DNA from: a bacterium
GTDB taxonomy: Bacteria > UBA10199 > 2-02-FULL-44-16 > DYJF01
Length of the DNA stretch: 64,000 nt
Assembly (NCBI GenBank): GCA_041739675.1
Contig: JBGSNL010000039.1
Coordinates: forward strand, 9,927 to 73,926
Direction of reading: 5' to 3'
Under the pieces are notes generated by a model that saw only the letters and a program-made list of their open reading frames with translations, ran no database searches and was not told the DNA's origin. Shown one piece after another: positions 18,298 to 58,492 of the stretch (position 1 is its first letter; the number at the start of each line of letters is the position of its first letter). Made by a program: the position numbers and the translations under genes.

Positions 18298-18369
18298 GGC
18301 GGCGTACCCAAGTGGTAAGGGAGCGGTCTGCAAAACCGTTATGCACCGGTTCAAATCCGGTCGCCGCCT
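18298..18369 (+). tRNA. tRNA-Cys(GCA), CCA not encoded
   Basis: Acceptor GGCGGCG/CGCCGCC, anticodon loop CT-GCA-AA, T-arm ACCGG-TTCAAAT-CCGGT, U73. Confidence 0.96.
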
Positions 18370-18385
18370 CAGATTTTATCCGGCA

Positions 18386-18472
18386 GCCCGGGTGGCGGAA
18401 CTGGCAGACGCAAGGGACTTAAAATCCCTCGGGGAGAATATCCCTGTACCGGTTCAATTCCGGTCCCGGGCA
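18386..18472 (+). tRNA. tRNA-Leu(TAA), CCA not encoded
   Basis: Acceptor GCCCGGG/CCCGGGC, anticodon CT-TAA-AA, long variable arm, T-arm ACCGG-TTCAATT-CCGGT. Confidence 0.96.
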
Positions 18473-18476
18473 CAAT

Positions 18477-19163
18477 ATGGCGGCATTCGATCGCGACAAA
18501 TTCATCTCCTTCATTCTGGATAACGGCGTTGTGGGTTTTTTCGATCAGCCGATCACGCTGAAATCAGGCCGCAAATCTAACTGGTACGTGAATTGGCGGA
18601 CGGTCACATCCGACGTCTTTTTAACGGACAATCTGGCCGATTTTCTTATCGCTTTCGCCTCCGAACTGGGGATCAAGTACGACGGTTTTTTCGGCGTCCC
18701 CGAAGGCGCAACGAAGATCGCGATAATCTCAAGTTACAAGTGGGCGAGAAGCCAGCGGGGCTACAGGGCAGGCAGCCACCGACTTTCCATGGGGCGGGGA
18801 AAACCCAAGGAGCACGGCGCGCCGAAAGACAAGTATTTTCTGGGCGAGCCCCACGAAAATGTCATCATTGTGGAGGACGTGACAACGACCGGCGGCTCGC
18901 TTCTCAGTACCATAGATTATCTGAAGCAGGCCGGTTCGAATGTTGTCGCCGCTATAGGGCTGACGAACAGGATGGAGCTGGATAACGATAAGAGAAGCGT
19001 CGCCGATGCTGTCGCAGCAAAGGGAGTAAAATATTTTGCGATGAGCGAGGCGGCCGACATCCTGCCCGAAGCCGTGGCGCGCTTCAATCCGAAAGCTGAA
19101 ATTGTGAAGGCGATAGAAAAAGAGTTTGAGGAGTTCGGCGTCAAACCTTTGAGGCTAAAATGA
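18477..19163 (+). CDS. pyrE: Orotate phosphoribosyltransferase
   Basis: ITLKSGRKSNWY, PRPP-binding IIVEDVTTTGGS; adjacent to pyrF. Confidence 0.88.
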   Translation: MAAFDRDKFISFILDNGVVGFFDQPITLKSGRKSNWYVNWRTVTSDVFLTDNLADFLIAFASELGIKYDGFFGVPEGATKIAIISSYKWARSQRGYRAGSHRLSMGRGKPKEHGAPKDKYFLGEPHENVIIVEDVTTTGGSLLSTIDYLKQAGSNVVAAIGLTNRMELDNDKRSVADAVAAKGVKYFAMSEAADILPEAVARFNPKAEIVKAIEKEFEEFGVKPLRLK

Positions 19164-19864
19164 CGAAAATTATTTCACAGGACAAAAGTTTGATCCCCGC
19201 GTGCGATGTCGATGCGGATCGTTTCGAAGTCATCGTCAAAGAGACCGCTCATATCCCCATAATCAGCGCTTACAAGATCGGCTTCATGCTGGCGATGGAG
19301 ATAGGGCTTCCCAAGGCGTGTGAAATCGCAAGGCGCCACACAACGAAGCCTCTCATTTACGATCATCAGAAGGCGGGAACCGATATTCCCGACACTGGCA
19401 AGGCCTTCATGCACGTCTGCAAAAAATCCGGAATCGATGCCGTGATTTTGTTTCCGCAGGCGGGCCCAGAAACCGAGCGCGCCTGGATCGAGGCGGCAAA
19501 AGGGGAGGGGCTGGGCGTGATAGTGGGCGGGCTCATGACCCACAAAGGTTACACGCGCGGAGACGGCGGCTACATCGCCGACGAAGCGATCATCGAGATG
19601 TACCTCAACGCAGTGAGACTTGGTGTTACGGATTTCGTGGTGCCCGGCACGAACCCCGAGGCGATTAACAAGATCCGCGAGATGTTGGAGCATCAGAAAA
19701 TAAATCCGATCCTTTATTCGCCCGGGCTCGTAGCCCAGGGCGGAAATATTTCTGAGGCACTGAAGGCCGCGGGCGGCCATTGGCACGCGATCGTCGGCCG
19801 CGCGATCTACGGCGCTAAAAATATCCATGCGGCGGTCGAGGAGCTCTCGCAATTCCTAAAATGA
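19160..19864 (+). CDS. pyrF: Orotidine-5'-phosphate decarboxylase with divergent catalytic motif
   Basis: ACD, YKIG, DHQKAGTDIPDT, SPGLVAQGG, IVGRAIY; 4-bp overlap with pyrE. Confidence 0.85.
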   Translation: MTKIISQDKSLIPACDVDADRFEVIVKETAHIPIISAYKIGFMLAMEIGLPKACEIARRHTTKPLIYDHQKAGTDIPDTGKAFMHVCKKSGIDAVILFPQAGPETERAWIEAAKGEGLGVIVGGLMTHKGYTRGDGGYIADEAIIEMYLNAVRLGVTDFVVPGTNPEAINKIREMLEHQKINPILYSPGLVAQGGNISEALKAAGGHWHAIVGRAIYGAKNIHAAVEELSQFLK

Positions 19865-19873
19865 AGGTGATTT

Positions 19874-56534: not shown

Positions 56535-57086
56535 ATGAAGACCACTTATTATGAAATCCTGTGCGTGAGCCCGGCCGCGTCGTTCGATATAATTCACGCG
56601 GCATATCGCGCACTGATGCTGAAAAAGCACCCCGATCTGGGCGGCGATCCCGAAGAGGCGAAATCGATCAATGAAGCCTATTCGGTTTTGAAAGACGCCG
56701 ATCTGCGTTCCCGCTACGATTCGAAGCTTGGGAAACCGCCGCTCTGGAAATTCTGGGAGAGGCCGGCGCCGCCGTCGACTGAAAGGCGCCGAGCGGTCCG
56801 CACGCAGGTCAATGCCACGGTCTCATTTTGTCTCAATCATGACACGCGCTGGAGCGCCGCGCGCGTGAGGGATTATTCAGTCATAGGCTGTCGCATCATC
56901 TCGCACGAACCTATAAAGAAAGACGAATCGATAGTCATCTCGTGCGCCAATACCGCTTCGCAGGTCGTCCACGGCAAGGTTATGTGGGTTCGCATGTATT
57001 GTCCTTCCATATTTGAGAGGGTGTATGAGGCCGGCGTAGAATTTGATTCGCCCATACCCGACATCGCCCAAAGACTTTCAATATAA
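56535..57086 (+). CDS. J-domain (DnaJ) - PilZ fusion protein
   Basis: YYEIL...AYRAL..KKHPD...INEAYSVL (J domain); ERRRAVR (RxxxR) and DYSVIG (DxSxxG) PilZ motifs. Confidence 0.85.
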   Translation: MKTTYYEILCVSPAASFDIIHAAYRALMLKKHPDLGGDPEEAKSINEAYSVLKDADLRSRYDSKLGKPPLWKFWERPAPPSTERRRAVRTQVNATVSFCLNHDTRWSAARVRDYSVIGCRIISHEPIKKDESIVISCANTASQVVHGKVMWVRMYCPSIFERVYEAGVEFDSPIPDIAQRLSI

Positions 57087-57181
57087 TTCATACATGCCCG
57101 CTGGCCCCGCTGCCCCTGCGCCGACTGATTCTCAATAATCTCAATTGCATCTCTCGGCGATGTCGGGTATCGGTTCACTTT

Positions 57182-58333
57182 GTGAGAAAACTTTACGTTA
57201 TCATTATAATAGCAGGTCTCTTGGTGCCGGCGTTGGTCCATGCGCAGGATGGCATTCGCTCGAGCGTGCCGGTTCTGGCTCATACGTGGGCCAGCAAGAA
57301 GATCAACGGCGCGATCTGGGGGGTAGCGATAGGCGACGTCACGGGCGATGGTGCAAAGGATATCGTCTATCTCGAGAGAAACGCGGTTCGCATTGGTTCG
57401 ATTGAGGGCGGCGCGCTCAAAATCATTTCCTCTTATGAATGGGAAGGGCTCTCGCAAGGGGCGAGACTTTTCCTGAAAGATATTGACGGCGATTCCGTCC
57501 AGGAAATCCTTGTGTCCGCGGTCTTCAACGGCATGCCCGATTCCTTCGGGCTCAAGTGGGAAGACGGTAAATTCAAAACAATCTTCGAACACGTTCAATG
57601 GCATCTGAGGGTGACAGATGACGGCACTCTTCTCGGCCAGCAGCGGGATTACGAAACCTTTTTCGCGGGCTACGTCTATGAGCTCTCGTTCGACGGGAAA
57701 AAGCTGAAGGCCGGGAATAATTTGAAACTTCCGAAATGGGCGGCGATATACGACTTCACAATGCTCCCGGGCAGCGCCGAAAATCCGGAAGATAAGCGGG
57801 TGCTGCGCCTCTCCGGCAACGAGCCGCTTTTGCTCTACGAACGCCAAGGCAAGAGGCTCAAAAAAGTGTGGTCGAGCGGCGTGAGATTCGACGGGACACT
57901 CAATATAGTGGAAGCGGTTGAAAGGCAGCCGCTGGGGATGTCGATCAACGAAGACGTGCCGATAGATAAGGAGCCGCAGGTTTCGGAGCTCTACGGCGCG
58001 GTTTTGATTCTGGCGGCCAGACATGATATTCCGCTGAAGGGCGTGATCGGGCGGCGCCCGTTCATCCGCAACGGAAGACTCGTCGCCTGGAAGGAAGACC
58101 CCTCGCTGGGGTTCGCCGAGGCCTTCGAAACCGAAGAGGTGCCGGGCTACATTTCGGACTATTCAATAGTTTCCTATGAAGATGTGATGCCCGACCCGAA
58201 ACCTGCATCAAAGAAGAAACCCGAAGAGGTGAAGAAGGTTGATACAAAAAAAATCATCGCATCTATCCAGCAGAGCCCCAGCATGTGGGGCGAAAGCCCG
58301 CAGAGCGTCCTTCTCATCTTCGACCTGCCTTAA
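57182..58333 (+). CDS. Secreted FG-GAP/VCBS-repeat protein
   Basis: Signal peptide; AIGDVTGDGAKDIV and DIDGDSVQEI repeats. Confidence 0.75.
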   Translation: MRKLYVIIIIAGLLVPALVHAQDGIRSSVPVLAHTWASKKINGAIWGVAIGDVTGDGAKDIVYLERNAVRIGSIEGGALKIISSYEWEGLSQGARLFLKDIDGDSVQEILVSAVFNGMPDSFGLKWEDGKFKTIFEHVQWHLRVTDDGTLLGQQRDYETFFAGYVYELSFDGKKLKAGNNLKLPKWAAIYDFTMLPGSAENPEDKRVLRLSGNEPLLLYERQGKRLKKVWSSGVRFDGTLNIVEAVERQPLGMSINEDVPIDKEPQVSELYGAVLILAARHDIPLKGVIGRRPFIRNGRLVAWKEDPSLGFAEAFETEEVPGYISDYSIVSYEDVMPDPKPASKKKPEEVKKVDTKKIIASIQQSPSMWGESPQSVLLIFDLP

Positions 58334-58387
58334 ATAATTTGGTCTCGACAAATTTTGTGCAACATTATAATTAGTGCGGTTCGATGA

Positions 58388-58461
58388 GGCGGGGTAGCTC
58401 AGATGGCTAGAGCGAGGGATTCATAACCCCTAGGTCGGCGGTTCGATCCCGCCCTCCGCCA
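58388..58461 (+). tRNA. tRNA-Met(CAT), probably elongator; CCA not encoded
   Basis: Paired G1-C72 (not initiator), G2-C71/C3-G70, anticodon loop TT-CAT-AA, T-arm GGCGG-TTCGATC-CCGCC. An Ile2 identity cannot be fully excluded. Confidence 0.9.
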
Positions 58462-58462
58462 C

Positions 58463-58492
58463 AAAATGGCCTCGTGGAACGAGGCCATTTTT
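58463..58492. terminator. Bidirectional intrinsic terminator after tRNA-Met
   Basis: AAAATGGCCTCG-TGGAA-CGAGGCCATTTT(T). Confidence 0.8.

Follow-up and report, generated by a model that had tools for sequence, protein, structure and literature searches.

A templated C74 and an A-rich trailer as a putative signature of tRNA 3'-end maturation without RNase Z in a bacterial order

Introduction

Why should the tRNA genes of a bacterium continue, after the discriminator base, with CA rather than with the CCA of the mature tRNA? The question is raised by a stretch of 64,000 nucleotides (nt), referred to below as the window, which corresponds to positions 9927-73926 of contig C73 in a 1.91-Mb assembly (88 contigs, 53% G+C; genome code G000) of an uncultured hot-spring bacterium, and in which all five tRNA genes have this form. 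Bacterial tRNA 3' ends mature by two routes: either the CCA is templated and the trailer is trimmed by exonucleases, or the gene is CCA-less and RNase Z cuts the precursor after the discriminator. The first-pass annotation of the window suggested that the CA is a lineage-wide 3' processing signal or the product of a systematic loss of one C, and that it implies an unusual maturation route.

Four kinds of observation bear on this question: the sequence rule itself, its phylogenetic spread, the inventory of processing enzymes, and the abutment of protein genes on tRNA genes. Taken together, they suggest, with a probability that we put at roughly 55%, that CA is what shows of a tRNA 3'-end design common to the lineage, and that this design is the signature of maturation without RNase Z.

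The C74 Rule in the Genome

The five window tRNA genes were located alike by ARAGORN and Rfam, and their discriminators, which are the exact ends of the Rfam tRNA matches (Table 1), are followed by CAG, CAA, CAA, CAG and CAA, in the order of the genes. All five acceptor stems consist of seven perfect base pairs, and the discriminators (U73 for Cys; A73 for Leu, Val, Pro and Met) fit the tRNA identities; the N73-C-A ends were thus confirmed in 5/5 cases. The register of all 35 tRNA genes of the assembly was then re-derived from the pairing of bases 1-7 with the 3' strand. The acceptor stems are perfect in 34 of the 35 genes, the exception being the initiator with its expected 1:72 mismatch, and the discriminators again match the identities; therefore, the register is not an artefact of the gene caller. 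An origin of C74 in tRNA boundary calling can be ruled out, as the Rfam ends and the seven-base-pair stems give the same register.

Position 74 is C in all 35 tRNA genes, an outcome with a chance probability of ~1e-20, given that C makes up ~26.5% of bases. The triplets at positions 74-76 are CAA in 17 genes, CAT in six, CAG in four, and CCA in eight. The wording "CA rather than CCA" therefore holds for all five window tRNAs and fails genome-wide, where eight genes (initiator Met, Glu-CUC, Ala-GGC, Arg-UCU, Gly-GCC and three Ser) template the full CCA; the other 27 (77%) do not. Among these 27 genes, A75 is also invariant (chance ~2e-6, even against the local A-richness of ~62%), and the numbers of C at positions 76, 77, 78, 79, 80 and 81 are 0, 0, 1, 2, 3 and 0, respectively, i.e., six C in 162 bases, of which ~60% are A, in a genome of 53% G+C. 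The trailers behind the eight CCA genes are of the same A-rich type. The conserved unit, accordingly, is C74 (or CCA) followed by a short A-rich, nearly C-free stretch, and CA is merely its first two letters.

A tmRNA, as an additional 3'-end case, was not found by ARAGORN in the G000 assembly. It should be noted that the initiator tRNA gene (C41:13178-13254, minus strand), which templates the full CCA, is peculiar in two respects: it has a U1:U72 mismatch where C1:A72 is usual, and its anticodon stem has just two G-C pairs at the lower end.

Spread of the Rule in the Phylum

The phylum that contains the window genome is represented by a single class among the genomes sampled. In 14 relatives of the same order, C74 was found in 91 of the 91 tRNA genes read; these genes continue as CA in 66 cases, CCA in 12, CC followed by a base other than A in six, CT in five, and CG in two, so that A75 is present in 66 of the 79 non-CCA genes. 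Orthologous tRNAs may have CCA in one genome and CA in another (for example, tRNA-Tyr has CAT in G000 and CCA in G002). Because orthologues switch in this way while C74 is retained in every case, CCA and CA look interchangeable in this order, with C74 fixed. The tabulation thus yielded trailers that are neither random nor mostly CCA, and the claim of a lineage-wide, non-random pattern holds up both in G000 and in its same-order relatives. Most other families of the class have 100% C74. Two families stand out: in f10, C74 is present in 25 of 33 tRNA genes (76%), a mixed state, and in f8, position 74 is T in 24 of 33 tRNA genes and C in only three.

In some relatives, a trailer motif located ~5-10 nt after the tRNA is common to many genes: GCAGTgaTTAGTGTGTAGTG in G004 (loci L203, L204 and L206), and ...gcagtga or ...gcagttaa in G007 and G009, a locus of G001 (L193) being listed, as well. 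A weaker echo is seen in G000 at tRNA-Thr(GGU), TAAGTGTAAGG. This motif might represent a promoter, a repeat or a site of processing.

Trailer Type and RNase Z Content

No other anti-determinant of RNase Z is as strong as C74 (PMC3161902), and the RNase Z substrates of Bacillus subtilis are CCA-less precursors (Pellegrini 2003, cited by PMC7479834 and PMC1874595). We compared the trailers with the RNase Z content of the genomes, using the model TIGR02651 (cut-off of 293 bits) on the order and on 33 further genomes of the class. A canonical RNase Z is encoded in eight of the 33, always with a score of >327 bits, and these eight genomes are exactly the members of f8 and f10. No RNase Z homologue with a flexible arm was detected in G000 or in any other of the 15 order genomes (G000 included), and tblastn searches of G000 with the canonical RNase Z of the phylum, and with the 283-aa RNase Z-like protein described below, found nothing. 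The best TIGR02651 match in G000, at 64 bits, is to a 278-aa metallo-beta-lactamase (MBL) hydrolase that lacks the arm.

Outside the window's order, a conserved 283-aa MBL family was encountered (G040:C5:194362-195207, with homologues in G017, G022, G024, G033 and G039). Its scores are 73 bits to the general RNase Z model and 49 bits to TIGR02650 (Thermotoga-type), and the alignment spans the flexible-arm region; to judge by these matches, the family is possibly a new RNase Z subtype with a patchy distribution in the phylum.

Counted per tRNA gene, C74 is present in 188 of 202 genes from genomes with neither kind of RNase Z, in 28 of 66 from genomes with the canonical enzyme, and in 37 of 53 from genomes with the 283-aa family. 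Counted per genome, C74 is universal in 27 of 31 genomes with neither kind versus 2 of 14 with one of them (Fisher p ~5e-6, uncorrected for shared ancestry). The direction of the association is the one predicted from established knowledge on the C74 anti-determinant.

Inventory of Nucleases

Curated models were run on 13 genomes of the order (G000 and 12 others). All four genes of the inventory that the first-pass annotation had called for, rnz, rph, rnt and rnd, are absent from G000. The RNase PH model matches only PNPase in the order genomes, and the RNase T-type DEDDh domain (PF00929) was found neither in G000 nor in 11 of the 12 other genomes. As for RNase D, the sole PF01612 domain of G000 lies in a 948-aa open frame, which is assumed, from its size alone, to be DNA polymerase I; since the only such domain lies in a frame of this size, we count RNase D as missing. 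Proteins of RNase D size occur only in four more distant members of the order (G007, G008, G009 and G011). A side effect of the missing PF00929 domain is that the classical epsilon proofreading subunit is seemingly lacking, too, in G000 and the same 11 of 12 relatives.

The only 3'-5' exoribonucleases found in G000 are RNase R (one copy; TIGR02063, 739 bits versus a cut-off of 598) and PNPase, and each of them is single-copy in 13/13 order genomes. Of the endonucleases, G000 encodes one RNase E/G-family protein (a 522-aa open reading frame (ORF) on contig C79; PF10150, 364 bits) and RNase Y (713 bits; contig C84). The RNase R and RNase Y genes lie on the same strand of this small contig, 1.5 kb apart (C84:864-2813 and C84:4316-5896). 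With respect to RNase J, a motif scan of G000, made without a search with RNase J models, gave only one beta-CASP protein, and this 459-aa hydrolase (contig C21) is closer to the aCPSF1/Cas14 type than to any listed RNase J model. The arm-less MBL hydrolase (278 aa; C6:33178-34035) carries an HxHxDH motif. Its best family match is RNase Z, the 64 bits being distributed over two pieces that flank the missing flexible arm; a cyclic-nucleotide phosphodiesterase model matches the protein over its full length with 56 bits. Relatives of this hydrolase were detected in 11 of the 13 order genomes.

CCA-Adding Enzyme and RNase P RNA

That tRNAs of this kind need CCA completion, and that the window carries the gene for a class II nucleotidyltransferase with an HD domain, had been stated in the first-pass annotation. 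Both statements agree with our results: exactly one such enzyme is present in G000, with matches to the head domain (PF01743, 73 bits), the RNA-binding domain (PF12627, 76 bits) and the HD domain (PF01966, 35 bits), as well as a C-terminal tRNA_NucTran2_2 match. The NCBIfam equivalog cut-offs are missed (212.8 versus 451 bits for NF008137; 207 versus 438.8 for TIGR02692), and by these scores the protein appears to be a divergent member of class II; they do not tell whether it adds CCA, CC, A or CA. Its relatives sit in metagenome-assembled genomes labelled Deltaproteobacteria, Myxococcales or Bdellovibrio. PF01743 matches once in each of 12 order genomes, and not at all in the thirteenth, the incomplete G012; a split pair of CC-adding and A-adding enzymes is ruled out by this single gene per genome. 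The cca and pnp genes are 3-7 kb apart across the order. A functional operon of cca with a nuclease gene was considered and rejected, since the neighbours encode SurA-like, TPR and CoaE proteins and rpsO-pnp is convergent; the arrangement looks like ordinary conserved gene order.

The L15 loop of Escherichia coli RNase P RNA pairs, by its GGU, with C74/C75. If RNase P read the CA of these precursors, a change from GGU to UGU would be expected to covary with C74-A75. This was not the case, the motif CGGGUAGG (GGU) being kept in G000 and in the three relatives aligned. Because GGU is kept, C74 can still pair with the second G of L15. This G-C74 pairing may add to the selection on C74; it leaves A75 unaccounted for.

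Protein Genes Abutting tRNA Genes

At several places in G000, protein genes start only 2-13 nt after a tRNA discriminator, without a Shine-Dalgarno sequence (contigs C85, C86, C31, C60 and C74, the last being a contig name; in the window, 18477, 45127 and 51942). About a quarter of the tRNAs of the genome are involved, and the intergenic regions elsewhere are ordinary. In the most compact case, tRNA-Pro(CGG) is followed by glnB as A73-C-A-ATG, so that the start codon begins at position 76; this start is secure because the P-II Pfam profile aligns over 1-102 of its 102 positions from residue 1. After tRNA-Ser(CGA), dnaX starts 3 nt on (CAT-ATG) and encodes a DnaX with the canonical MSYQV... N-terminus. 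The pyrE-like gene of the window has its ATG 4 nt past tRNA-Leu, which leaves no room for a Shine-Dalgarno site. Other abutments in G000 involve BacA/UppP (uppP), which begins at most 10-13 nt after tRNA-Asp, a transketolase-like gene (CCAA followed directly by GTG), a 784-aa gene after tRNA-Ser(UGA), and secE, located 13 nt after tRNA-Trp. Some of the other starts are less certain. For the hexapeptide-transferase ORF after tRNA-Pro(GGG), a second ATG, 13 codons beyond 51942, is preceded by the Shine-Dalgarno-like motif AAAGAGGA, and this ATG may be the true start.

A few tRNA-ORF junctions are also present in relatives; in G004, the same tRNA-Val is followed by CAA-ATG and a 532-aa ORF, and another involves a tRNA-Arg of G002. 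In the latter (locus L196), tRNA-Arg(CCU) templates CCA, and the ATG of a 210-aa ORF overlaps A76 (A73-C-C-ATG), so a single transcript can leave this A to the tRNA or to the mRNA but not to both.

The abutments look, from the gene arrangement, like tRNA punctuation in a bacterium, with mRNAs that are leaderless. They also argue for endonucleolytic cleavage at the 3' end of the tRNA, because 3'-5' trimming would destroy the abutting genes of the same transcript.

Features of the Window

The features of the window to which the analysis refers are collected in Table 1. The threonyl-tRNA synthetase-like ORF begins ~15 residues before its RHSAAH motif and appears to be without an N-terminal TGS domain; between it and the tRNA there is no room for leader-based regulation of the kind seen in model bacteria.

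Table 1. Positions of tRNA genes, adjoining open reading frames and processing enzymes in the window
Feature	Position	Strand	Remarks
tRNA-Cys(GCA)	18298-18369	+	U73 at 18369; templated C74-A75 at 18370-18371; trailer CAGattttatccggca, then tRNA-Leu
tRNA-Leu(UAA)	18386-18472	+	A73 at 18472; C74-A75 to 18474; trailer CAAT directly joins ATG at 18477
pyrE-like phosphoribosyltransferase ORF, 228 aa	18477-19163	+	ATG 4 nt after the tRNA-Leu(UAA) discriminator (CAAT-ATG)
PNPase	33233-35341	+	Downstream of rpsO (32778-33047); convergent with the surA-like/cca/TPR/coaE gene string
Class II tRNA nucleotidyltransferase (CCA-adding enzyme), 488 aa	36471-37937	-	Only one in the genome
tRNA-Val(GAC)	45049-45122	+	A73 at 45122; C74-A75 to 45124; trailer CAAA, then GTG at 45127
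Threonyl-tRNA synthetase-like ORF, 580 aa	45127-46869	+	First possible start GTG, 4 nt past the tRNA-Val discriminator; putative start
tRNA-Pro(GGG)	51864-51938	+	A73 at 51938; C74-A75 to 51940; trailer CAG, then ATG at 51942
tRNA-Met(CAU)	58388-58461	+	A73 at 58461; C74-A75 to 58463; trailer CAAaa, terminator-like hairpin tggcctcgtggaacgaggcca, T run

Discussion

A model of maturation without RNase Z. The unusual maturation route proposed in the first-pass annotation fares well insofar as the enzyme inventory points to a non-standard route; the route itself is deduced from gene content and comparative patterns, and its cut position, its nuclease and the retention of C74 in the product are what we infer from them. 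In the proposed sequence of events, a single-strand-specific nuclease would first cut the A-rich stretch right beside C74 and so remove the trailer. The first candidate for this step would be the RNase E/G-family enzyme, given the similarity of N73-C74↓A75-W to the RNase E consensus of E. coli, (A/G)N↓AU, and RNase Y would be the second. The E. coli enzyme cuts 0-3 nt past CCA in AU-rich trailers, with this consensus, and it makes the mature 3' end of the proline tRNAs in one step (PMC5291269). Leftover A residues would then be nibbled away by RNase R and/or PNPase. A wrong nucleotide beside the acceptor stem could not be removed, so that the remainder must already be C, CC or CCA; on this proposal, C74 would never vary because no enzyme is present to tidy the last nucleotides. 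Finally, the single CCA enzyme would add C75-A76 on 27 tRNAs and restore the missing part on the eight CCA-templated ones. Where glnB, dnaX or the pyrE-like gene abuts, the same cut would free a nearly leaderless mRNA.

A stricter form of this proposal can be formulated, in which, without RNase Z, one endonucleolytic cut falls exactly at C74↓A75 across the order, C74 is kept in the mature tRNA, the CCA enzyme works as a CA-adding enzyme, and leaderless mRNAs are released as in tRNA punctuation, here in a bacterium. In this full form the proposal is tentative, and we consider it doubtful.

Several observations weigh against the general reading of CA as the mark of maturation without RNase Z. 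The RNase E consensus, with U at +2, is only partly matched, since position 76 is A more often than U, and for ~10 tRNAs of G000 the A-tract of an intrinsic terminator supplies part of the A-richness. RNase E/G, RNase Y, the beta-CASP and arm-less MBL hydrolases, and RNase R/PNPase coexist, and the data do not distinguish between them. Some T/A-type trailers occur in G025, G029, G035 and G038, although no RNase Z was detected in these genomes, and conversely f10 has RNase Z and still carries 76% C74. All RNase Z-positive genomes belong to just two families, or to eight if the 283-aa family is counted, and most relatives were read for only 2-15 tRNAs each, in a sample biased towards tRNA clusters. 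Lastly, among the sequencing runs searched, the organism was seen only in hot-spring DNA metagenomes, and no transcriptome of it was found among them; the RNA runs that share sequence words with it contain CCA-templated tRNA-Cys and tRNA-Leu of other organisms.

Alternative explanations. The alternative that survives best, unlikely as it seems to us, is purely exonucleolytic: RNase R and/or PNPase would chew back the C-free trailer and slow or stop at the first C they meet (C74, or C75 in the CCA genes), and the CCA enzyme would complete the end. C residues stop RNase T of E. coli, which is a likeness for such a mechanism, and the trailer, nearly C-free from position 75 to ~81, is exactly what a C-hindered enzyme needs. 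The two enzymes are, moreover, the only 3'-5' exoribonucleases found, single-copy in the 13 order genomes; a cytosine-sensitive RNase R activity is cited in PMC12320835 (its reference 27), and RNase R alone matures tRNA 3' ends in Mycoplasma genitalium, by the accounts given in PMC12320835 and PMC4014445. However, the glnB, dnaX and pyrE-like mRNAs would be destroyed by trimming from the 3' end, the terminator hairpins after ~10 tRNAs would first need unwinding, and no C-specific stop is documented for PNPase. Also, a duplex halts PNPase and enzymes of the RNase II type while they are still several nucleotides away from it, which counts against this alternative.

The pattern might, alternatively, be mostly a matter of history, an explanation that we regard as improbable. 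An ancestral CCA with an A-rich trailer would have undergone single-C deletions (CCA-A to CA-A) once templating became dispensable, with C74 kept for the RNase P GGU pair and A75 as a leftover. The triplet spectrum of CAA 17, CAT 6 and CAG 4 is that of a one-C deletion, the substitution products CTA and CGA being absent in G000; orthologues flip between CCA and CA; GGU is retained in RNase P RNA; and the initiator tRNA keeps its CCA, as in most bacteria (PMC5143459). An unselected A75 would nevertheless decay, yet it is found in 27/27 non-CCA genes of G000 and in 66/79 in the order. Furthermore, the depletion of C reaches ~position 81, and a constraint from RNase P only does not predict the switch to T74 in the RNase Z-bearing f8. 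The systematic loss of one C suggested at the outset thus fits the triplet spectrum; alone, it does not account for the strict retention of C74 and A75.

The weakest candidate by a narrow margin, likewise improbable in our estimate, is a dedicated endonuclease that recognizes the shape of the tRNA, is not recognizable as RNase Z, and cuts after C74, for which the abutments call for a precise cut, the arm-less MBL hydrolase offers RNase Z as its best family match (64 bits), the HxHxDH motif and relatives in 11/13 order genomes, and the chloroplast tRNase Z fraction that cuts after C74 and leaves completion to the nucleotidyltransferase provides a precedent (PMC3161902), but the score of 64 compares with an RNase Z cut-off of 293, the tRNA-binding arm is missing, the cyclic-nucleotide phosphodiesterase model matches the full length almost equally well (56 bits), similar MBL proteins are also present where an RNase Z-like enzyme exists (e.g., G040 and G024), and the other candidate, the beta-CASP hydrolase, has no link to tRNA.

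Comparison with known systems. Returning to maturation without RNase Z as the preferred reading, the lineage resembles the E. coli type in having an RNase E/G-family enzyme, A/U-rich and C-poor trailers after a templated C, and the GGU loop, and the E. coli proline tRNAs are a precedent for 3' ends made in a single endonucleolytic step. Unlike in E. coli, only C74 is templated in 77% of the genes, with the full CCA in 8/35, and G000 has none of the finishing exonucleases RNase T, PH, D and BN/Z. Because most genes template only C74, the CCA enzyme is obligatory here and does not serve just for repair.

The B. subtilis type, in which CCA-less precursors are cut by RNase Z after N73 and CCA-containing ones are trimmed by exonucleases (Pellegrini 2003 as cited in PMC7479834 and PMC1874595), is approached within the phylum in that T74 trailers go with RNase Z (f8) and C74 trailers with its absence, and in that a class II enzyme completes the CCA. 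In contrast to B. subtilis, the order has lost RNase Z altogether and RNase PH is absent, and its genes of the "exonuclease type" carry only C74 instead of the full CCA, with C in 35/35 at position 74 and not the typical U74.

The RNase Z of Synechocystis, another parallel to the dedicated endonuclease considered above, reportedly chooses its cleavage site in a sequence-dependent manner, as is said of work by Ceballos-Chavez and Vioque in JBC in 2005. The tRNase Z of the chloroplast/Thermotoga type tolerates C74 or CCA, or cuts after them (PMC3161902). As in chloroplasts, the templated C74 would be retained in the product and the nucleotidyltransferase would add the rest, and the idea of a co-evolution of trailer and nuclease is the same. 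However, C74 occurs in ~25-30% of chloroplast tRNA genes, which is near chance, versus 100% here (PMC3161902), and no RNase Z homologue with a flexible arm was found in G000.

With the one-step RNase R type of M. genitalium (Alluri & Li 2012 as cited in PMC12320835 and PMC4014445), the lineage shares a minimal exoribonuclease set centred on RNase R and the lack of RNase Z, PH and T. It differs in that the CCA enzyme has been lost from Mollicutes, whose tRNA genes all template CCA, whereas here most genes are without C75-A76 and the enzyme is kept. The likeness to mitochondrial tRNA punctuation lies in glnB, dnaX and the pyrE-like gene, which start 2-4 nt after tRNA genes, so that tRNA 3' processing would create the mRNA 5' end; unlike in mitochondria, the tRNAs concerned, only about a quarter of the total, lie on a bacterial chromosome whose intergenic regions are otherwise ordinary, and there is no RNase Z/ELAC2 homologue.

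Partial templating of CCA has been noted for chloroplasts, where about a quarter of the genes have C74, after which a tRNase Z fraction makes its cut (PMC3161902); a survey of CCA templating in bacteria has no mention of partial templating (PMC5143459). The components of the system are thus ordinary, and it is their combination, i.e., strict C74, a C-free A-rich trailer, the lack of RNase Z, PH, T and D, abutting genes, and co-variation with RNase Z within one phylum, of which we found no description in the literature searched.

Significance. The lineage fits neither textbook route: its genes mostly supply the first C only, RNase Z and the known finishing exonucleases are missing, and one CCA enzyme serves most tRNAs. 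If C74 is indeed retained, the C74-adding step of this enzyme would be dispensable in these lineages, and the abutting genes would have rare bacterial mRNA 5' ends made by tRNA processing. The joint switch of trailer type and RNase Z content within one phylum is a natural experiment on the co-evolution of trailers and processing machinery, and the frequency of C74 offers a simple genomic marker to predict the maturation route in uncultured bacteria. Gene content and the sequence rule together point to a little-described way of finishing tRNAs.

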